Shown: one piece after another, positions 6,026 to 16,169 of the stretch
How positions within the stretch are numbered: position 1 is the stretch's first letter
Layout of the letters: each line of letters starts with the position of its first letter
Notes under the pieces: model-generated
Database searches by the model: none
What the model was told of the DNA's origin: nothing
Seen by the model: only the letters and a program-made list of their open reading frames with translations
DNA from: a virus
Taxonomy: Duplodnaviria; Heunggongvirae; Uroviricota; Caudoviricetes
Strand: one strand, 5' to 3'
DNA length: 16,169 nt
IMG/VR virus record: IMGVR_UViG_2540341091_000001
Coordinates: 1-16,169 of that record
Made by a program: the position numbers and the translations under genes

Positions 6026-9000
6026 ATGGCAGTAAAGATTTCAGGTGTACTGAAAGACGGTGCAGGTAAACCGGTACAGAACTGCACAATCCAGCTGAAA
6101 GCAAAACGTAACAGCACCACGGTGGTGGTGAACACGGTGGCATCTGAAAATCCGGATGAAGCCGGGCGTTACAGCATGGACGTTGAGTACGGTCAGTACA
6201 GCGTTATTCTGTTGGTGGAAGGCTTCCCGCCATCGCATGCCGGGACCATCACCGTGTATGAAGACTCACAACCGGGTACGCTGAATGATTTTCTCGGTGC
6301 CATGACGGAGGATGATGCTCGTCCGGAGGCACTGCGCCGCTTTGAACTGATGGTGGAAGAGGTGGCGCGTAACGCGTCCGCAGTGGCACAGAACACGGCA
6401 GCCGCGAAGAAGTCAGCCAGCGATGCCAGCACATCAGCCCGGGATGCGTCGGCTTCAAAAGAGGCAGCAAAATCATCAGAAATGAGCGCAGCCTCTTCGG
6501 AAACGGCGGCAGGAAATTCCGCGAAGGCCGCAAAAACGTCTGAGACGAATGCGGATAACAGCGCACAGGCGGCAGCGGCCTCACAAACTGCATCGGCAAA
6601 CTACGCGACAGCCGCCAAAAAATCAGAAACCAACGCGAAAAATAGCGAGGCAGCAACAAAGAGCAGTGAAACAAACGCGGCGAAATCTGCGGCGGACGCA
6701 CTTAATTATCGCAACCAGGCGCAATTAATTGTTGGCGATAATATCGGTCTTGGCTCAGCCCCGCGTGATTGTCCTGATATTTCCGGCAACCCATCAGGGT
6801 ATATCGGATTTATGCGCATTATGAGTAATGCAAAAGGCTTTCCATCGATTGCATCCGGTGAAAGCAGTCTTACGGGGTTTATTAGTCAGGTAGATGGAAC
6901 ACCAGCGTATACAGGTGTATTTCAGGGATGGGCTACGCGCTCGCTTTATACTTATCGCTGGAATCCGACAATAGGCCCGCAATGGACACGCCACGCAAGA
7001 AAAGATGAGGTTATCCGATTTCAGCGTTCAAGCGACACAAGAACCATCATTTTATCTACTGACGTTCAGGCGGACGGCTGTTACTTACAGGTTGATGCTG
7101 ACGGTCAGTGGGGCGCATTTAACCCTAAAGCTGGTAGATGGCAACCGCTCGCAGTTGCGCAAGGTGGCACAGGGGCGAATGATGCAAGTACAGCGCGCTC
7201 TAAACTTGAAGTCATGTTTGAAGCAAAAACTGGCCTTGATGCGAATACGAACTTAAACGATATAAAAGGTACTACAGCCGGTTTTTATTACCAACCAATG
7301 TCTGCCAACGCAAAGCCAGAACTAAATTACCCGATACAGCTTGCTGGTGCATTGTTAGTGCAAAGAACTGGTGCTAATGGTAGTGATGGTTGTATCCAGA
7401 GCTATTTTGTATATAACAATTCATCAATTCTTTATAGAAGGATATATACCAGCACACAAGGTTGGAGTGTATGGAAAAAAATAGTATTAACAGAAAGAAT
7501 TGAAGAAGGCGAATCGACTACTTACGTTTATTCGAATTACTCACCATCAGCGCCACGACTTCAGGTGTCAACATCTGGATTGTGGGGTTGCCATAACGGA
7601 TCGTCATGGGTTCCATTACCTATTGGACAAGGAGGCACTAATGCGGCAACTGTTGATGGTGCCAGAACGAATCTTGGCTTAGGTAGGAACAACAGCCCTC
7701 AACTTAACAGTCTATTTCTTGATAGATATAGTGATTCGACCAATACATACACATCTAGTGGAATTCTCCATACAAGACTGTTAGCAACTGACAGCACTGT
7801 GCGTCTTGGTGCTGATATGTATGTTGAGACTTTATCAAATGAGCCAGGTCAATTAACAATAAGGTTTACATACGATGGTTCAACTGGTGCTTCAAAATAT
7901 CTAAACCTTAACTCAGAAGGTAATTTAATTGTAGATAGTGCGATACTGAGATCAACGGTTGAAAAACCTTTACAAATAAGGAGCGCTAACCCAGCAATAA
8001 GATTTAATGAAACAGATCGCCCGGCTAACACGCCTACTTATACTCTCATTGCTAATGCTGGTGACTGGTTTATTCAGAAACGCGATTATGATGATGCCGG
8101 AAGCGTTAGTAACGCAATTGCATATAATTTCGCAAACGACAGAATTGATGTGCAAAATCTTAAAGCGTCTGGGTTAATTACAGCTAACTCAGGAATCGCA
8201 ACATTAACAGGTCATGACTGGAACGCTCAGCATACTGATAACGTCGACAAATTTAGACCAATTGCAGGCAGTACAAACGGCCCGGCAGGCTCTATGGTTC
8301 TTGGCGGCATTCATGTTCAATTTAGTAAAAATTATGCTGTGCAGTTCGGAGGCCGCAATTCCGGTTTTTGGGGAAGAACAATTGAAAATGGAACGACGCA
8401 GGAATGGAAGAAATTACTAACAGTAGACGATCTCAATTCATCTACCGATCTTGCTGTCAGGTCATTAACCACATCTAACCCGGTAAAATCTGGCGGAGGG
8501 CGAATTGATGTCCTTGGAAGCACGTCAGACTATAGCAAAATGGATTGCTTTGTACGTGGGTTTGATAGCACCGGTAATTCTCTCGCGTGGGCGTTGGGTT
8601 CATCAGTCGGCGTAAGTAAGATGCTGTCGCTAAAAAATTTCTTTAGCGGAGCTGAGATACTGCTAAATGGTAATGACGGCGCGGTTCAACTCAAAACAGG
8701 TGCTGTTAACGGTGCTAAAGCGCAGGCGCTCACTATCAACAAGGATGAGGTTAACTCAACTGTTGATTTAACTCTTACAAAACAAACAGGGACTGGCAAT
8801 CGTTTTGTTTTACAGAACTTAGGTAATACAGAACTACCATTTGCTGTCAAGGTGTGGGGTTCAGGTGATCGACAAAACGTTTTTGAGGTTGGAACGTCTG
8901 CCGCGTATCTGTTTTATGCTCAAAAAACATCGTCAGGTCAGCTGTTTGATGTAAACGGTGCTATTAACTGTACAACACTGAATCAGTTATCAGACCGCGA

Positions 9001-9367
9001 GCTGAAAGACAATATTCAGATTATCAGTGACGCAACCGAAGCTATCCGTAAAATGAACGGGTACACCTACACACTTAAGGAAAACGGACTGCCTTACGCT
9101 GGTGTTATTGCACAGGAAGCAATGGAGGCAATACCGGAAGCGGTAGGCTCATTCACTCATTACGGTAAAGAGTTGCAGGGACCAACGGTTGACGGCAATG
9201 AATTACGTGAAGAAACACGTTATCTGAATGTTGACTACGCCGCCGTGACGGGCTTACTTGTTCAGGTCGCCCGTGAAACAGATGATCGCGTTACCGCGCT
9301 GGAAGAAGAAAACGCAGAATTAAAACAAAGATTATCTGCAATTGAGGCGGCGCTTGCCTCTAAATAA
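6026..9367 (+). CDS. stf: side tail fibre: lambda Stf-like N-terminus, divergent central/distal region, C-terminal intramolecular-chaperone (peptidase S74-like) domain
   Basis: N-terminus MAVKISGVLKDG...GRYSMDVEYGQYSV...HAGTITVYEDSQPGTLNDFL is near-identical to lambda Stf as I recall it. Real ATG is 6026 (the track begins at a GTG at 6020). C-terminal 125 aa (SDRELKDNI...TALEEENAELKQRL) resemble the self-cleaving chaperone domain of endosialidase-type fibres. Confidence 0.85.
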   Translation: MAVKISGVLKDGAGKPVQNCTIQLKAKRNSTTVVVNTVASENPDEAGRYSMDVEYGQYSVILLVEGFPPSHAGTITVYEDSQPGTLNDFLGAMTEDDARPEALRRFELMVEEVARNASAVAQNTAAAKKSASDASTSARDASASKEAAKSSEMSAASSETAAGNSAKAAKTSETNADNSAQAAAASQTASANYATAAKKSETNAKNSEAATKSSETNAAKSAADALNYRNQAQLIVGDNIGLGSAPRDCPDISGNPSGYIGFMRIMSNAKGFPSIASGESSLTGFISQVDGTPAYTGVFQGWATRSLYTYRWNPTIGPQWTRHARKDEVIRFQRSSDTRTIILSTDVQADGCYLQVDADGQWGAFNPKAGRWQPLAVAQGGTGANDASTARSKLEVMFEAKTGLDANTNLNDIKGTTAGFYYQPMSANAKPELNYPIQLAGALLVQRTGANGSDGCIQSYFVYNNSSILYRRIYTSTQGWSVWKKIVLTERIEEGESTTYVYSNYSPSAPRLQVSTSGLWGCHNGSSWVPLPIGQGGTNAATVDGARTNLGLGRNNSPQLNSLFLDRYSDSTNTYTSSGILHTRLLATDSTVRLGADMYVETLSNEPGQLTIRFTYDGSTGASKYLNLNSEGNLIVDSAILRSTVEKPLQIRSANPAIRFNETDRPANTPTYTLIANAGDWFIQKRDYDDAGSVSNAIAYNFANDRIDVQNLKASGLITANSGIATLTGHDWNAQHTDNVDKFRPIAGSTNGPAGSMVLGGIHVQFSKNYAVQFGGRNSGFWGRTIENGTTQEWKKLLTVDDLNSSTDLAVRSLTTSNPVKSGGGRIDVLGSTSDYSKMDCFVRGFDSTGNSLAWALGSSVGVSKMLSLKNFFSGAEILLNGNDGAVQLKTGAVNGAKAQALTINKDEVNSTVDLTLTKQTGTGNRFVLQNLGNTELPFAVKVWGSGDRQNVFEVGTSAAYLFYAQKTSSGQLFDVNGAINCTTLNQLSDRELKDNIQIISDATEAIRKMNGYTYTLKENGLPYAGVIAQEAMEAIPEAVGSFTHYGKELQGPTVDGNELREETRYLNVDYAAVTGLLVQVARETDDRVTALEEENAELKQRLSAIEAALASK
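6380..6710 (+). repeat. in-frame Ala/Ser/Thr-rich tandem peptide repeats within stf
   Basis: Translation shows repeated units such as AAKTSETNADNS, AAKKSETNAKNS, ATKSSETNAAKS, as in lambda Stf. Confidence 0.4.
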
Positions 9368-9373
9368 TATTAA

Positions 9374-9396
9374 GGGGCTGTGCGCCCCGTTTTATT
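9374..9396 (+). terminator. putative intrinsic terminator after stf
   Basis: Stem GGGGC (9374-9378) / GCCCC (9384-9388) followed by GTTTTATT. Confidence 0.4.
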
Positions 9397-9403
9397 GGGT
9401 AGG

Positions 9404-9697
9404 ATGAAAATGGGTATAACACCTTTCCTTCATGCACTTTGTGCTGTGGCTGCGCAGATACTGGTGGGGCTTTTTACCGGAAACTGGGTTTACGGAGCGA
9501 TAGCCAGTTGTACGTTCTTCATTGCGGGCGAACACACCCAAGCATAATATCGCTGGATTGAAATGTTCGGGCATGGCAAGCGGATTAACATGCCGTGGTG
9601 GGGCGGTTTTGATCCACGCGCATGGGATGTGGCAAGCCTGATGGATTTTGCTGTGCCGATGGTAGCGTGTCTTCTGATCTGGCTGTTGATCCGTTGA
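9404..9697 (+). pseudogene. small hydrophobic (membrane) protein gene interrupted by an in-frame TAA at 9545-9547
   Basis: Frame from ATG 9404 gives MKMGITPFLHALCAVAAQILVGLFTGNWVYGAIASCTFFIAGEHTQA, then TAA, then continues in the same frame for 49 codons (YRWIEMFGHGKRINMPWWGGFDPRAWDVASLMDFAVPMVACLLIWLLIR) to TGA at 9695-9697. Not in the ORF track because each half is under 60 aa. Confidence 0.35.
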
Positions 9698-9705
9698 ACA
9701 TAAAA

Positions 9706-9741
9706 AGCCGCAGCAACTTGCCATGGCAGGATACTGCGGCT
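9706..9741. terminator. putative bidirectional terminator between the small membrane-protein gene and the convergent RT gene
   Basis: 8-bp stem AGCCGCAG (9706-9713) / CTGCGGCT (9734-9741) with a 20-nt loop containing the palindrome TGCCATGGCA; A-run upstream and T-rich DNA downstream. Confidence 0.3.
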
Positions 9742-9804
9742 GGTTTGTGAGTTTAAATAGTGTGTTTATTGCGATATATTTTAATGACTTAATGGATTAC
9801 ATAT

Positions 9805-10668
9805 CTATGATATTCCTGAAATATCCTCTTCAAGCTCTTTTACTGATTTCGCAATTTTAAATTTAAACTTCCTCTCTATTTCACTATTGCTAAGTTTTTT
9901 TTCCTTCTCTTTACCTATCCACATAGAAACAAGTTCTCGTTTCTGAGATATATGTAGATTGTCAAAGTTAGGTATGTATTTAAAAGTCTCCGCTCTACCT
10001 CTGCGGAGTTCATAGAAAGTTTTAATCAAAGATTTTGGTTTTATTTCTGATGAAAGGCCGAATCGGCGGATAAGATTATTGATAGTATGATTAACAGAGC
10101 GAAGTTGAGCTGTTGAGGTTATTTGTGAGAAGTACGATACCCATCCCAATCGTTTACCTTCAAACACACATCCCGTAATTCTGAGATTTAGTTTCCACTG
10201 ACAATATGCAACAGCTCGTTCTTTATCACGCTTACTTTTAGCTTGTAGTAGAGCGTGCCTATATGCAGTAAAAATTTTTGCTAAGGATGACTCAAATCTA
10301 AGAATGCTCTCATGTTTTATCAATAATTCTCGATTTTCTATGTGGTATCCCAAAAAGTTAAAACTTTCATCCAAACTGCCTACTTTGGATTTTGAGTTCT
10401 CTTCATTTAATGGATGTGGGTTTAAATTTAATGATTGAAGCTTATCAATGATATGAGAAGCTATTTTTGTTGCTTGATATTTTGGTGTTAAAATAAGAAT
10501 GTCATCAACGTATCGCATGTACCATATGTCATGCATTTTATTGATTTCATCATCGAAATTAGATAGTGATATTTCAGCTAAAATGTTTGATATCGCTAAT
10601 CCCTGAGGTACTCCTCTGGTATTATTAGGGATACCTTTGCTTCCTGTGGTTCCACTTACAGTAGGCAC
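9805..10668 (-). CDS. reverse transcriptase, C-terminal segment (motifs 3-7 and a 170-aa C-terminal extension); in the -1 frame relative to the N-terminal segment
   Basis: Translation has GVPQGLAISNILAEI (motif 3/4), YMRYVDDILIL (the YxDD active site) and FNFLGYHI (motif 7). The track start is a GTG; this frame is open upstream to a TAG at 10708-10710, so it spans the A6G site of the upstream segment. Confidence 0.8.
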   Translation of the reverse strand: MPTVSGTTGSKGIPNNTRGVPQGLAISNILAEISLSNFDDEINKMHDIWYMRYVDDILILTPKYQATKIASHIIDKLQSLNLNPHPLNEENSKSKVGSLDESFNFLGYHIENRELLIKHESILRFESSLAKIFTAYRHALLQAKSKRDKERAVAYCQWKLNLRITGCVFEGKRLGWVSYFSQITSTAQLRSVNHTINNLIRRFGLSSEIKPKSLIKTFYELRRGRAETFKYIPNFDNLHISQKRELVSMWIGKEKEKKLSNSEIERKFKFKIAKSVKELEEDISGIS

Positions 10669-10685
10669 GATTAATGATGATGTTA

Positions 10686-11174
10686 TTAACTGTCTAATTT
10701 CTTTTTTCTAATTTTATTTTTTATTGCATTAATTATCAATTTATGTTCAATTGAAGGATAGAAACTTTTAAGATCTATTTTTGCATATTCAGCATATAGA
10801 CTGTTGTTTAATGCTTCTTTCAATGAGTCAATTACTGTATGTGGTAGTTTTAATCTGGACTTAGGATATATTTCCGTAAGGCATTCACAGAGAGCTCTAA
10901 GAGTAATTCTGTCCCTAGCAGTTGGTATGGAAATCTGTCTGGGTGTAGAGTTAGCGCCTTTAGATATTAATTTTTCTTTATATGCTGTAAATTTGTAATT
11001 GCCAGAATTAACCTTTTCAAAAATGAAAGTGATCTCATTTTTTATTGTCAAATCAAGTTTTGATGGGCGAATCCGATCTATGCCAATCGCTCCTGATTCT
11101 TTGATTTTTTCAGAGTATACTTTTAGAAGATTTTTTTTCGAGAATGACTTTTTAAAAATTCTGCTTGCAGTCAT
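10686..11174 (-). CDS. reverse transcriptase, N-terminal segment (fingers, motifs 1-2); frame ends 15 nt after an A_AAA_AAG heptamer
   Basis: ATG at 11174 (the track begins at a TTG at 11180). Motifs GIDRIRPSKL, PRQISIPTARDRITLRAL and AKIDLKSFYPSI. Start overlaps the 3' end of the upstream membrane-protein gene by 23 nt. Confidence 0.75.
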   Translation of the reverse strand: MTASRIFKKSFSKKNLLKVYSEKIKESGAIGIDRIRPSKLDLTIKNEITFIFEKVNSGNYKFTAYKEKLISKGANSTPRQISIPTARDRITLRALCECLTEIYPKSRLKLPHTVIDSLKEALNNSLYAEYAKIDLKSFYPSIEHKLIINAIKNKIRKKKLDS

Positions 11175-11703
11175 AGTCAATCCAAAGATATATTAATGGG
11201 AGTATATAAAGTGCGGCAGTAATAAATATTCGAAGTAATATCCATAAAATAACAATTATTTTTTCTTTTTGTGTGGGGATCCTCGTCTTAAGTCCAACTT
11301 GAGTTACCCTTGAAATTTTATCATCTATGTCACGGTGATTCTCAACCTCATTGAGCAAATTAAAATATTTTTCTTTCTGTTCAAGAGATAACTGTTGACT
11401 GGTGGTAATGTCAAAATAGAGTCGCTGTAGTGCAATATAATTCCTTCTCATGGCTATTGCTCGACCACGAAAATCTAGGTTAGATACGATCAGAGAAATA
11501 CCCAGTAGAGCCACTGAAAGTATCGCCGCAACGACATCTGTATTATCTCCTAGAACCTTTGGAAATCGCAACGTTACAATTGAAAGTACCGCACTCAATA
11601 TAGCATACCAAACGAGGATAAATTGAGAGTGTTTTTCAAGCCATTCTAGTCGATGGTGCGCTTGGATACGTGCTTTATATGTAAACCAAATATTGTCATG
11701 CAT
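11152..11703 (-). CDS. multi-pass membrane protein (two N-terminal TM helices plus a C-terminal hydrophobic helix), possibly SLATT-like; candidate effector partner of the RT
   Basis: 183 aa; hydrophobic segments FILVWYAILSAVLSIVTL, VVAAILSVALLGISLIVS and IIVILWILLRIFITAALYILPLIYLW around a charged helical middle. Translationally coupled to the RT. SLATT assignment is an unverified guess from architecture. Confidence 0.6.
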   Translation of the reverse strand: MHDNIWFTYKARIQAHHRLEWLEKHSQFILVWYAILSAVLSIVTLRFPKVLGDNTDVVAAILSVALLGISLIVSNLDFRGRAIAMRRNYIALQRLYFDITTSQQLSLEQKEKYFNLLNEVENHRDIDDKISRVTQVGLKTRIPTQKEKIIVILWILLRIFITAALYILPLIYLWIDYDCKQNF

Positions 11704-11727
11704 AAAAGATCCTTTTTAAAAGCGGAA

Positions 11728-11808
11728 GGGGCAGGATATATTGGAACCGTTGAACATCCTGCCCGGCAGGATCAGTGAGCATAAGCTCAACAGTAAAATA
11801 TTACTGTT
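11728..11808 (-). other. structured 5' leader of the membrane-protein/RT operon (candidate cis-regulatory RNA or RT-associated ncRNA)
   Basis: 9-bp stem GGGCAGGAT (11728-11736) / ATCCTGCCC (11755-11763) with an 18-nt loop; 20-bp palindrome AACAGTA-AAATAT-TACTGTT (11789-11808). Confidence 0.3.
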
Positions 11809-11865
11809 CATTATCAGAGCCGCCCTTGCATGCGCAAGAGGAAAAACCTGCCCCATCCCTTTGAA

Positions 11866-11894
11866 TTATTACAATTTAATGATCTTAAAGTCAA
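11866..11894 (-). promoter_or_regulatory. candidate sigma70 promoter for the membrane-protein/RT operon
   Basis: Minus strand TTGACT (plus 11889-11894), 17-bp spacer, TAATAA (plus 11866-11871); about 30 bp from the IS2 left end. Confidence 0.3.
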
Positions 11895-12015
11895 TACAAG
11901 TGAATGGTGTCCAGAGATGATGAATAGACTGGCCCCCTGAATCTCCAGACAACCAGTATCACTTAAATAAGTGATAGTCTTAATACTAGTTTTTAGACTA
12001 GTCATTGGAGAACAG

Positions 12016-12381
12016 ATGATTGATGTCTTAGGGCCGGAGAAACGCAGACGGCGTACCACACAGGAAAAGATCGCAATTGTTCAGCAGAGCTTTGAACCGG
12101 GGATGACGGTCTCCCTCGTTGCCCGGCAACATGGTGTAGCAGCCAGCCAGTTATTTCTCTGGCGTAAGCAATACCAGGAAGGAAGTCTTACTGCTGTCGC
12201 CGCCGGAGAACAGGTTGTTCCTGCCTCTGAACTTGCTGCCGCCATGAAGCAGATTAAAGAACTCCAGCGCCTGCTCGGCAAGAAAACGATGGAAAATGAA
12301 CTCCTCAAAGAAGCCGTTGAATATGGACGGGCAAAAAAGTGGATAGCGCACGCGCCCTTATTGCCCGGGGATGGGGAGTAA
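12016..12381 (+). CDS. insC: IS2 transposase OrfA (InsC)
   Basis: [41 protein letters not shown]... is the IS2 InsC sequence; ATG 12016 with GGAG at 12007-12010. The track ORF from 11971 is an upstream extension. Confidence 0.9.
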
Positions 12382-13244
12382 GCTTAGTCAGCCGTTGTCT
12401 CCGGGTGTCGCGTGCGCAGTTGCACGTCATTCTCAGACGAACCGATGACTGGATGGATGGCCGCCGCAGTCGTCACACTGATGATACGGATGTGCTTCTC
12501 CGTATACACCATGTTATCGGAGAGCTGCCCACGTATGGTTATCGTCGGGTATGGGCGCTGCTTCGCAGACAGGCAGAACTTGATGGTATGCCTGCGATCA
12601 ATGCCAAACGTGTTTACCGGATCATGCGCCAGAATGCGCTGTTGCTTGAGCGAAAACCTGCTGTACCGCCATCGAAACGGGCACATACAGGCAGAGTGGC
12701 CGTGAAAGAAAGCAATCAGCGATGGTGCTCTGACGGGTTCGAGTTCTGCTGTGATAACGGAGAGAGACTGCGTGTCACGTTCGCGCTGGACTGCTGTGAT
12801 CGTGAGGCACTGCACTGGGCGGTCACTACCGGCGGCTTCAACAGTGAAACAGTACAGGACGTCATGCTGGGAGCGGTGGAACGCCGCTTCGGCAACGATC
12901 TTCCGTCGTCTCCAGTGGAGTGGCTGACGGATAATGGTTCATGCTACCGGGCTAATGAAACACGCCAGTTCGCCCGGATGTTGGGACTTGAACCGAAGAA
13001 CACGGCGGTGCGGAGTCCGGAGAGTAACGGAATAGCAGAGAGCTTCGTGAAAACGATAAAGCGTGACTACATCAGTATCATGCCCAAACCAGACGGGTTA
13101 ACGGCAGCAAAGAACCTTGCAGAGGCGTTCGAGCATTATAACGAATGGCATCCGCATAGTGCGCTGGGTTATCGCTCGCCACGGGAATATCTGCGGCAGC
13201 GGGCTTGTAATGGGTTAAGTGATAACAGATGTCTGGAAATATAG
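12339..13244 (+). CDS. insD: IS2 transposase OrfB (InsD), normally made as an OrfAB fusion by -1 frameshift at A6G (12333-12339)
   Basis: 301-aa DDE-type integrase-fold protein matching IS2 InsD; slippery A_AAA_AAG at 12333-12339 lies in the orfA/orfB overlap. Confidence 0.9.
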
Positions 13245-13260
13245 GGGCAAATCCATGAAC

Positions 13261-13509
13261 TTAATGAACAAACCACTCGTCAGCAGACTCCCAGGTATCT
13301 TTCAGAGTCTCCTGAACAAAAGTTTTAGCTGAATCTTTATCAGCGGTGCGCGTAACAGAAAGGCCATCGTTGCTGGTGGCTTTTACGATCACTTCTACAT
13401 CGTCATAACGTTTACTGATGCGTCGGGTTAATTCTTCCTTTAACGCATCCACAGCACCGGTTGGCATTTTAGTCATTTTTTCTTTGGCTATGCAGATTTC
13501 AATACGCAT
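13261..13509 (-). CDS. dinI: DinI-like SOS-inducible protein (prophage-borne)
   Basis: 82 aa [37 protein letters not shown]...[11 protein letters not shown] resembles DinI; GGGGA Shine-Dalgarno 5 nt upstream; LexA boxes immediately upstream. Confidence 0.8.
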
Positions 13510-13523
13510 AAAAGTCCCCTACA

Positions 13524-13567
13524 CTGTATTTGTATACAGTATTATTTTTAACTGTATGGATAAACAG
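13524..13567 (-). promoter_or_regulatory. two tandem LexA (SOS) boxes in the dinI-like promoter region
   Basis: CTGTATTTGTATACAG (13524-13539) and CTGTATGGATAAACAG (13552-13567) both fit CTGT-N8-ACAG; the first, with flanks, is near-palindromic ACTGTAT...ATACAGTA. Confidence 0.7.
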
Positions 13568-13569
13568 TG

Positions 13570-14667
13570 TCAAGAGGTCTTATTTCTGCTCCTTTGGAGT
13601 TCTTCAAAACGATTATGTAAAGATTTCGGATACAGTTCGGTATATACCTGCCATAGCACGTTTAATGAACGATGCCCTGTAACCTGAGCGACTTCCTCAA
13701 TACTAAAACCAGCCTCAAATAAGCGACTTGCCCCTTCTCTACGCAAATCATGGTATCTCAGATCTTTAATACCTAATTTGCTTCTTACCCTCTGAAATCC
13801 TGCGGTAACAGAAGTGCTGTTATATGGAAAAATGAATTCTGATTTTTTGGGTTGTCGCTGGACGATATCCCAGGCTTCCCCAAGCAAGGCAACTTTCATA
13901 TGGTTGCCTTCCTTTTTACGTGGATCTTTCCTGTCTCTTACTAGTATAGATTTTTGTTCCTGGTCGAGATCTTCCCATCGTAACCGGCATACTTCTCCGA
14001 TTCGCATACAGGACCACACAGAAAATTTGAGGATATCAACGAACGGAATTTTTGAGCATTTATGAGTAGATCGTTGTTGAAGGCCTTCAATGAGCATGTT
14101 CAGTTCATCAGATGCTGGTCTACGATTACGACGGTTTGATTTACCAATCAAACCGAGTTTAAGTAGATATGGACGAGCGCTTTTCGCCGGGTTTGATGTG
14201 TAATTGATTCCGTATACAGGTTTTGCCGCATCCAGAACACTGCCAAGATAACTAACATCGTGGCTGACTGTTGCTGGGCCTGCACCAGCGTTGTTTCTTA
14301 GCCTGCAATGTTCAATTACGTCATTTTCTGTCAGTTCAGATAGTTTGATCGCGGAGATGTCACTATCCATAAGCAGTTCCAGCACATATCTTTTAGTACG
14401 GCCTGCTTTACCTCCGGCATTTGGGTCATTTAAATATTTGTGTAGTAAGTCACGGACTGTAAGTCCGTCAACAGCATTTGATGATGGAATGCCATATAGA
14501 TCTAATTCCATCACTTTCTGTGCGCCCCATGTTTTGGCATGAGCATGTTTAGGGAATGTTTTGCTTTCCCTGTAAGTGATAACACCTTTTTCTTTGATAA
14601 TCACATTACAGCGATAGCGTGGTGTGCCATCGGATTTTAGTCGTTTCTCTATGTTATAGTACGCCAT
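13570..14667 (-). CDS. int: tyrosine recombinase / phage integrase, dusA-associated type
   Basis: 365 aa; C-terminal catalytic region with RYHDLRREG, HRS and conserved Tyr (WQVYTELY). Divergent from and directly adjacent to the 5' end of dusA. GAGG Shine-Dalgarno 7 nt upstream of ATG 14667. Confidence 0.9.
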   Translation of the reverse strand: MAYYNIEKRLKSDGTPRYRCNVIIKEKGVITYRESKTFPKHAHAKTWGAQKVMELDLYGIPSSNAVDGLTVRDLLHKYLNDPNAGGKAGRTKRYVLELLMDSDISAIKLSELTENDVIEHCRLRNNAGAGPATVSHDVSYLGSVLDAAKPVYGINYTSNPAKSARPYLLKLGLIGKSNRRNRRPASDELNMLIEGLQQRSTHKCSKIPFVDILKFSVWSCMRIGEVCRLRWEDLDQEQKSILVRDRKDPRKKEGNHMKVALLGEAWDIVQRQPKKSEFIFPYNSTSVTAGFQRVRSKLGIKDLRYHDLRREGASRLFEAGFSIEEVAQVTGHRSLNVLWQVYTELYPKSLHNRFEELQRSRNKTS

Positions 14668-14755
14668 TACACGACCTCGTTATTTCGGGTTCCCATAAAG
14701 CGTGGGAACCTGTGCGGGAACCTAACGCGAGAAAAATAGCCTGAAATGTTCAAAA

Positions 14756-15793
14756 ATGCACGATAATCCTGAAACACAGAAAACTAATCAAACCAGCGTG
14801 ATGCCTGAAAAAACTGGCGCTTACTGGAGTTCTCGGTTTAGCATTGCTCCTATGCTCGACTGGACGGACAGACATTGCCGCTATTTCTTGCGTCTGCTTT
14901 CCCGCAATACGTTGCTGTATACCGAAATGGTGACCACAGGGGCGATTATTCACGGTAAAGGTGATTACCTGGCGTACAGTGAAGAAGAACATCCGGTAGC
15001 GTTGCAACTCGGCGGTAGCGATCCGGCGGCGCTGGCACAGTGTGCGAAGCTGGCAGAAGCGCGTGGATATGATGAGATCAACCTGAATGTCGGCTGCCCG
15101 TCTGACCGGGTGCAGAACGGCATGTTTGGTGCGTGTCTGATGGGTAATGCGCAGCTGGTTGCCGACTGCGTGAAAGCGATGCGCGATGTGGTGTCGATTC
15201 CAGTGACGGTGAAAACGCGTATTGGCATCGATGACCAGGACAGCTATGAATTTCTCTGCGATTTCATCAACACCGTTTCCGGCAAAGGCGAGTGTGAGAT
15301 GTTTATCATCCACGCACGTAAAGCCTGGCTTTCGGGGTTAAGCCCGAAAGAAAACCGTGAAATCCCGCCGCTCGATTATCCGCGTGTGTATCAACTGAAG
15401 CGTGACTTTCCGCATCTGACAATGTCGATTAACGGTGGTATCAAGTCGCTGGAAGAGGCCAAAGCACACCTGCAACATATGGATGGCGTGATGGTCGGGC
15501 GCGAGGCGTATCAGAATCCGGGTATTCTGGCGGCGGTAGACCGGGAGATCTTTGGTTCCTCGGATACCGATGCCGATCCAGTGGCGGTAGTGCGCGCCAT
15601 GTATCCGTACATTGAGCGTGAACTCAGCCAGGGGACGTATCTCGGCCATATTACCCGGCATATGTTGGGCTTGTTCCAGGGTATTCCTGGCGCGCGGCAG
15701 TGGCGGCGTTATTTAAGTGAAAATGCCCATAAAGCGGGTGCAGACATTAATGTGCTGGAACACGCGCTCAAACTGGTGGCGGATAAGCGTTAA
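14756..15793 (+). CDS. dusA: tRNA-dihydrouridine synthase A; 5' end probably contributed or reconstituted by the integrated element (alternative start ATG 14801)
   Basis: Translation matches E. coli DusA throughout ([37 protein letters not shown], ...ALKLVADKR); followed by pspG as in the E. coli chromosome. Confidence 0.9.
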
Positions 15794-15875
15794 CTTTTCA
15801 CCAAAAAGTAGTCAAATTCACCACGCCCTGCGCACCGTCGCGGGGCATTTTGCTGTTAAATCAATAGATTATTTT

Positions 15876-15890
15876 TGGCATGATTCTTGT
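15876..15890 (+). promoter_or_regulatory. candidate sigma54 (-24/-12) promoter of pspG
   Basis: TGGCAT-GATTC-TTGT approximates the TGGCAC-N5-TTGC sigma54 consensus (GT instead of GC at -13/-12), about 35 nt upstream of the pspG ATG. Confidence 0.35.
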
Positions 15891-15926
15891 AATGCCAGCA
15901 AGAGATTTCATATTTGGGAGAGCATC

Positions 15927-16169
15927 ATGCTGGAACTACTTTTTGTGTTTGGCTTTTTTGTCATGCTGATGGTCACCGGCGTTTCGTTGCTGGGCATTAT
16001 CGCCGCGCTGGTTGTGGCGACGGCCATTATGTTCCTCGGCGGTATGCTGGCATTGATGATTAAGTTGCTGCCGTGGTTACTACTGGCGATTGCGGTGGTG
16101 TGGGTTATTAAGGCGATTAAAGCACCAAAAGTGCCGAAATATCAGCGTTATGACCGCTGGCGTTACTAA
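15927..16169 (+). CDS. pspG: phage shock protein G
   Basis: 80 aa MLELLFVFGFFVMLMVTGVSLLGIIAALVVATAIMFLGG...KYQRYDRWRY; RBS GGGAGAG at 15915-15921. The track ORF from 15717 is an upstream extension. Confidence 0.85.
   Translation: MLELLFVFGFFVMLMVTGVSLLGIIAALVVATAIMFLGGMLALMIKLLPWLLLAIAVVWVIKAIKAPKVPKYQRYDRWRY

Follow-up and report, generated by a model that had tools for sequence, protein, structure and literature searches.

What lies between the IS2 element and the reverse transcriptase (RT) operon in this stretch of phage DNA, and does the adjacent RT depend on it? We addressed this question in a sequence of 16,169 nt (hereafter the window), for which an earlier note had described a structured 220-bp leader and had proposed that it holds a structured non-coding RNA (ncRNA) serving the neighbouring defence RT as partner or template. 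We found that positions 11858..11722 of the minus strand are very likely the 137-nt ncRNA of a DRT10 (UG17-A, Eco3DRT10-type) anti-phage system. The proposal of an RNA partner was borne out by a covariance model match, by covariation of the paired positions and by the identities of the adjacent genes.

11722..11858, minus strand: DRT10 (UG17, Eco3-type) ncRNA, 137 nt, placed by covariance model R1 and by the published numbering

We examined the genes downstream of this RNA, and found two overlapping genes on the same strand.

11152..11703, minus strand: gene for a SLATT_5 two-transmembrane effector, 183 aa (Pfam SLATT_5, 1.3e-28; PADLOC RTasSLATT, 1.5e-56)
11710..11714, minus strand: SLATT Shine-Dalgarno sequence AAGGA, 6 nt before the ATG, read from the sequence
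9805..11174, minus strand: UG17/DRT10 RT gene, 456 aa in intact alleles, overlapping SLATT by 23 nt and split by a 1-nt deletion near 10707

A purine-rich GGAG or GGA is conserved at the position of the SLATT Shine-Dalgarno sequence in the homologues. The PADLOC profile RT_UG17 matched twice, with 4.1e-59 over profile positions 1-160 and 1.8e-93 over positions 179-429, and these matches represent the two halves of the RT, which the frameshift divides into open reading frames of 164 and 287 aa. The homopolymer at 10702-10708 reads A6 in the window, compared with A7 in the E. coli loci examined. In 187 complete E. coli genomes, RefSeq annotates this DNA as SLATT and a single RT of 456 aa, again with an overlap of 23 nt. 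The YVDD active site and the C-terminal Ser456 of the RT are invariant in 26 homologues. Judged by these sequence matches, the SLATT gene, the UG17 RT and the upstream ncRNA are a DRT10 system.

DRT10 is a recently described defence system in which an RT and its RNA add repeats much as telomerase does. The UG17 RT was previously found by RIP-seq to bind a 137-nt ncRNA located directly upstream of SLATT (Tang, ..., Sternberg 2025, PMC12632851). This ncRNA has a large central stem and four smaller stem-loops, with the template and realignment segments A-B-A' in the loop after stem-loop 5 (SL5) (PMC12632851). In Eco3DRT10, the sequence CAAU-GAUUC-CAAU at nt 107-119 is the template, and the RT primes on its own Ser456 to produce (GAATCATTG)n single-stranded DNA (PMC12632851). 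The binding of the RNA by the RT, the tandem-repeat cDNA and the need for it in phage defence were shown in Eco3DRT10 and in eight other homologues (PMC12632851). An independent study described UG17-A ncRNAs that are transcribed from a promoter of their own and in which the basal stem is essential (Sanchez-Nieto, ..., Toro 2026, 10.64898/2026.04.29.721553).

To identify the RNA in the window, we collected relatives of the locus with a protein search using the intact RT, which returned many proteins at 58-84% identity, and with a genome scan, which gave 44 loci. Choosing the longest open reading frame was unreliable for the SLATT starts in the homologues (GTG and TTG starts, truncated calls), and the conserved WFTYKARI motif was used as the anchor. 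The regions upstream of SLATT aligned with the window in Xenorhabdus, Photorhabdus, Buttiauxella, Pseudomonas, Stenotrophomonas and Bordetella. Covariance model R1 was trained on the upstream regions of 23 non-E. coli homologues from these six genera, and nothing from the window or from E. coli was included. Searched against the 16-kb window, R1 (a model built in this analysis from the same loci, and not a published covariance model) gave a full-length match at exactly 11858..11722 with 114.1 bits and an E-value of 1.4e-28. The runner-up match in the 16 kb scored 12 bits.

R1 also recovered two further Pseudomonas loci. It gave no match in 17 more distant loci (mostly alphaproteobacterial, with RTs 24-37% identical), which fits the published statement that the covariance models are subtype- or clade-specific (10.64898/2026.04.29.721553). 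The sole match of Rfam 15 to 9000-12100 at E<=1 was one to the bantam miRNA, which we attribute to chance. Rfam 15 holds no family for the DRT10 RNA, so there is no curated threshold for such a match, and RefSeq annotates no feature beneath it. Since neither RefSeq nor Rfam 15 marks this RNA, spotting a DRT10 ncRNA in raw sequence matters in practice.

The published numbering led to the same boundaries. We aligned CAAC in the window to the published A segment, which starts at nt 107, and counted 106 nt back to 11858. The basal stem begins at this base, and the -10 element ends 6-7 nt ahead of it. Counting 137 nt forward from 11858 led to 11722, just beyond the 3' strand of the basal stem.

The earlier note had also proposed a minus-strand promoter, TTGACT-N17-TAATAA, in this region. 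We found it where it had been placed, as the following two elements.

11889..11894, minus strand: -35 hexamer TTGACT of the ncRNA promoter (promoter scan and homologue comparison)
11865..11873, minus strand: extended -10 element, read as TG-T-AATAAT or TG-TAATAA-T (promoter scan, conservation over 29 loci)

The promoter scan scored TTGACT-18-AATAAT with the TG as a 10/12 match, and the spacer is 17 or 18 nt depending on the reading. The match alone is not significant, because 1.2 +/- 1.1 sites of this quality are expected by chance from the same scan over these 400 bp. Across 29 loci, A2 of the -10 element is invariant, T6 is conserved in at least 90%, and the distance to the 5' end of the RNA is fixed. 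The -35 sequence is retained as TTGAYT in the enterobacterial relatives Xenorhabdus, Photorhabdus and Buttiauxella. It is this conservation, and not the motif match, that supports the putative promoter. The ncRNA has its own sigma-70 promoter at 11894-11865, which is intact in the window, and the promoter, the palindrome discussed below and the structured RNA are a single minus-strand gene.

The description of the whole 220 bp as a structured leader needs to be narrowed. It holds a structured RNA, but this RNA covers only the 137 nt of 11858..11722, and 11859-11924 consists of the promoter and upstream DNA. In IS-free E. coli loci, the stop codon of a DinI-like gene ends 1 nt short of the position that corresponds to 11924. 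Because this stop codon adjoins the equivalent of 11924, the 220 bp is the complete native intergenic region.

We then asked how the RNA folds, using RNA folding and covariance analysis across homologous loci, both of which had been suggested earlier as checks. The 147-nt stretch analysed has a fold energy of -58.5 kcal/mol (z = -5.06), and none of 200 shuffled sequences was as stable, showing that the region is more structured than expected by chance. The architecture is a 12-bp basal stem closing a multiloop with stem-loops SL2 to SL5, and a single-stranded loop of about 20 nt lies between SL5 and the basal stem.

11847..11858, minus strand: 5' strand of the basal stem, GGAUGGGGCAGG, nt 1-12, G+C-rich, pairing with 11735-11724
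11724..11735, minus strand: 3' strand of the basal stem, CCUGCCCCUUCC, nt 124-135, complement of the 5' strand, supported by covariation
11823..11841, minus strand: stem-loop 2, CCUCUUGCGCAUGCAAGGG, nt 18-36, with 3 covarying pairs and 96.3% of cells paired
11789..11808, minus strand: stem-loop 3, the 20-bp palindrome, nt 51-70, with compensatory changes in 4/8 pairs and 99.4% of cells paired
11777..11788, minus strand: stem-loop 4, GAGCUUAUGCUC, nt 71-82, with 2 covarying pairs, found by RNAalifold
11756..11772, minus strand: stem-loop 5, AUCCUGC-CGG-GCAGGAU, nt 87-103, with 100% of cells paired and 2 covarying pairs; predicted 5' template-boundary element

Covariation was tested on a sequence-only MAFFT alignment of 29 loci with 27 distinct sequences. 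We found that the fold is conserved: in the five-helix structure, 97.1% of cells are paired and 20 of the 37 pairs show double, compensatory changes among the 27 distinct sequences. None of 500 shuffles reached any of these measures, and sliding the pairing partners by 1-3 columns reduced pairing to 45-58%. The basal stem contributed compensatory changes in 9 of 11 pairs, with 95.6% of its cells paired. RNAalifold on the 23 non-E. coli sequences predicted the same five helices, with 18 of 35 pairs compensatory and the template loop open. The single-sequence minimum free energy structure contained extra inner pairs (GG/CUG with the template loop), which are absent from the RNAalifold prediction.

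The junction GCGGCUCUGAUAAU between SL2 and SL3 (nt 37-50, 11822-11809) is unpaired and hardly varies over the range from E. coli to Bordetella. No helix reaches this degree of conservation, which points to contact with a protein or to a tertiary interaction.

A second hairpin, with a 9-bp stem at 11728-11763, had been described as part of the leader. The pairing of GGGCAGGAT (11763-11755) with ATCCTGCCC (11736-11728) is present in the sequence, but it does not belong to the conserved fold. It joins the 3' arm of SL5 to the 3' strand of the basal stem, and is possible because the SL5 stem of E. coli happens to resemble the basal stem. Across the homologues, only 56.5% of its cells are paired, there is no covariation, and 201 of 500 shuffles were as good. 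These values exclude it as a conserved helix. Its energy in the mature RNA is 3.3 kcal/mol higher than that of the canonical fold, and it contributes about 2% to the predicted ensemble, which makes it a minor alternative conformer.

The layout of the operon raises the question of whether the structure acts chiefly in cis, as an mRNA leader (for example of the attenuator, thermosensor or riboswitch-like type) that controls transcription or translation of SLATT-RT, and not in trans as a template RNA. After the basal stem, the sequence continues with GCUUUUAAAAAGGAUCUUUU-AUG, so that only 18 nt separate the 3' end of the RNA from the SLATT ATG, and the promoter scan found no promoter between them. 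Because of this short gap and the lack of a promoter within it, the SLATT-RT mRNA is probably made by read-through from the ncRNA promoter; the operon transcript then probably carries the structure, and the RNA would, by layout, physically also be the operon leader. The sequence GCUUUU after the basal stem may cause partial termination, and the alternative conformer described above does exist in E. coli. However, this conformer is not conserved, and the Shine-Dalgarno sequence lies outside the conserved structure. The homologous RNA is a discrete species of about 137-143 nt that is bound by the RT and active in trans, and the cDNA repeat is set by the sequence of its loop (PMC12632851; 10.64898/2026.04.29.721553). 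The Rfam 15 scan (9000-12100, E<=1) also gave no riboswitch or leader match. We therefore consider a mainly cis-acting role very unlikely, and continue with the reading as a DRT10 template RNA.

The 20-bp palindrome at 11808-11789, AACAGTAA-TATT-TTACTGTT, had been noticed before and was confirmed; in the RNA it forms stem-loop 3. The suggestion that it could instead be a protein operator was not supported. A DNA operator for a dimeric repressor of the operon would be compatible with a perfect 8+8 inverted repeat that has an AT-rich centre and lies near a promoter, but the palindrome is located at +51 to +70, within the transcribed RNA and not over the promoter. Its arms are not fixed and change together across genera (AACAGU/ACUGUU, AACGGC/GCCGUU, AACGAC/GUCGUU), and the loop between them varies from 4 to 11 nt among the homologues, often as a UUCG tetraloop, which fits an RNA hairpin. 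No regulator gene is conserved in the cassette. Taken together, an operator is highly improbable here, and we treat the palindrome as a helix of the DRT10 ncRNA.

We next located the template. The loop CAAC-GGUUC-CAAU was observed at nt 107-119, within the unpaired stretch GUUCAACGGUUCCAAUAUAU after SL5, and the template starts 4 nt past SL5.

11744..11752, minus strand: predicted template A-B, CAAC-GGUUC, nt 107-115, at the same position as CAAU-GAUUC in Eco3DRT10
11740..11743, minus strand: predicted realignment segment A', CAAU, nt 116-119, with its role taken from Eco3DRT10 mutagenesis

A CAA...CAA repeat is found at the template site in most of the 29 homologues. Compared with Eco3DRT10, the window allele carries C110 and G112, which leads to a predicted repeat of GAACCGTTG instead of GAATCATTG. 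A and A' share three of their four bases in the window allele, and the fourth is C in one and U in the other. Realignment would then use three Watson-Crick pairs and a dG:rU wobble. Published work showed that a match of about 3 nt between A and A' is generally required and that mismatches at the fourth base are tolerated (PMC12632851). Among the 187 E. coli genomes with the locus, the window-type template CAAC-GGUUC-CAAU is present in 153 and the Eco3-type CAAU-GAUUC-CAAU in 34, and thus the template studied by experiment, that of Eco3, is the rarer of the two in E. coli (34/187 vs 153/187).

By homology with Eco3DRT10, the system in the window is expected to work as follows. The RNA would be transcribed from its own sigma-70 promoter and would fold with the template loop single-stranded. 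The RT encoded downstream would bind this RNA and prime on its own C-terminal Ser456, copy nt 115 to 107 (CAAC-GGUUC), and stop at the boundary set by SL5. The 3' end of the cDNA would then re-pair with A' (CAAU, nt 116-119) and the cycle would repeat, as in telomerase. Repeated rounds would yield long tandem repeats of single-stranded DNA, and for this allele the predicted cDNA is (GAACCGTTG)n. This cDNA presumably controls the SLATT membrane effector. The boundary role of SL5 and the need for all three parts in defence come from published work on a 98%-identical allele and on other homologues (PMC12632851). For the window allele, we infer RT binding, protein priming, the repeat product and defence from the published homologue, and we observed the gene identities, the RNA boundaries, the fold, the position of A-B-A' and the intact promoter in the window itself.

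The window allele has two features that could modify this scheme. A second direct repeat, GUUC(104-107)...GUUC(112-115) with a period of 8, is present in the window allele and absent from Eco3. Together with the imperfect A/A' match, it could give a different or mixed-register product of 8/9 nt in vivo, and an 8-mer periodicity of CGTTGAAC would mark use of the second GUUC register. In addition, the extended SL5, which is specific to E. coli and Xenorhabdus, can swap partners with the basal stem to form the 9-bp hairpin, and might in this way act as a conformational switch that sequesters the template. That either effect makes natural polymorphism of template or fold tune the output of DRT10 is a speculative idea, and we regard it as unlikely.

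We compared the locus with known systems. It shares with Eco3DRT10 the operon order of ncRNA, SLATT and a 456-aa RT ending in Ser456, as well as the 137-nt length, the register, the basal stem with four stem-loops, and the template loop after SL5 with A-B-A' at nt 107-119. The RT record of Eco3 (OKX54664) has two extra N-terminal residues, matching the TTG-started open reading frame MT-MTASRIF here, and the priming serine is its last residue, S458, renumbered S456 (OKX54664). The allele of E. coli IHE3034 has exactly the published Eco3 template, and its RT is identical to the intact window RT at 451/456 positions (99%). The window differs from Eco3DRT10 in C110 and G112, with A and A' matching at three positions as against four, and also in the IS2 copy next to the locus and the frameshift in the RT. 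The RNA in the window is a close allele of Eco3DRT10 in a family described in 2025-2026, and is already known, not a new kind of element. What the analysis adds for this locus is the exact boundaries of the RNA and the predicted repeat (GAACCGTTG)n.

The UG17-A ncRNA of Escherichia sp. E3659 (10.64898/2026.04.29.721553) is similar in lying directly upstream of overlapping SLATT and RT genes, in being transcribed from a promoter of its own, in requiring its basal stem (SL1), and in carrying a short template flanked by a repeated triplet. It differs in its length of about 143 nt, its six predicted stem-loops and its template ACUUAUUACU, which gives a 7-nt AGTAATA repeat; its RT gene has 1338 nt, or about 445 codons according to the published coordinates. 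In DRT9 (UG28), a structured ncRNA likewise lies upstream of a class-2 UG RT, and its loop serves as the template for protein-primed repetitive DNA; the folds of the DRT9 and DRT10 ncRNAs are closely similar according to the authors (PMC12632851). However, DRT9 uses a conserved poly-U template to make poly-dA and primes on tyrosine, whereas the loop in the window has no poly-U and the best match of its RT is UG17. The likeness to telomerase RNA, an analogy drawn by the authors (PMC12632851), concerns the way of working (a short template, a 3' alignment segment and a 5' template-boundary helix); there is no homology of sequence or structure, and the system here is bacterial and protein-primed, not primed by chromosome ends.

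We give almost no credence to a retron msr-msd RNA that yields branched multicopy single-stranded DNA (msDNA), although a structured RNA beside an RT and a two-transmembrane effector occurs in some retrons and several database records label the RT 'retron-type', since in PADLOC the RT matches UG17 at 4e-59 and 1.8e-93 compared with about 3e-4 for the best retron RT models, the Rfam 15 scan (9000-12100, E<=1) gave no retron family, and the homologous RT primes on protein and has tandem-repeat DNA, not msDNA, as its product (PMC12632851).

The state of the DRT10 locus in this strain depends on how the RT deletion is read. Over 8227 nt, the window is identical to E. coli MS20649 save for two single-base deletions in A/T runs, one in the A-run of the RT gene and the other removing one A from an AA at the junction of IS2 and its target (13255-13256). 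The deletion in the RT A-run is absent from all of the best-matching E. coli genomes listed. Two homopolymer deletions in otherwise identical DNA suggest a sequencing or assembly error. The alternative to a homopolymer error is a real inactivation of the RT in this strain, and if the frame break is real, the RNA is left without a working partner here.

We also examined the insertion that borders the locus.

11925..13255, plus strand: complete IS2 insertion of 1331 bp, outside the system (junctions and comparison with IS-free loci)

IS2 is located 1 nt after the stop codon of the DinI-like gene and 31 nt upstream of the -35 hexamer of the ncRNA. It splits the DinI-like gene from the DRT10 cassette, leaving the promoter and the ncRNA gene untouched. 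The 5-bp target duplication in MS20649 is ATGAA. The same insertion is present in MS20649 and absent from the four IS-free loci examined. It is apparently present in two other genomes, in which the matches reach the base adjacent to IS2.

Between the RT and the tail-fibre gene, at 9392-9724, RefSeq places a short hypothetical gene on the opposite strand. RefSeq flags this gene as carrying an internal stop where the genome is identical to the window, and it is intact in IHE3034 and HCM-28C-2. For the minus-strand open reading frame at 9392-9724, no family match was found.

The order of the cassette is DinI-like gene, ncRNA, SLATT, RT and tail-fibre genes, located at a prophage end (9392-16169; five loci compared). 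It adjoins the integrase and dusA in the window and in MS20649, and prfC in FDAARGOS_433, IHE3034, MS6192 and HCM-28C-2. The position beside either dusA or prfC indicates that the defence module travels with prophages using different attachment sites. Two genomes carry two copies of the cassette.
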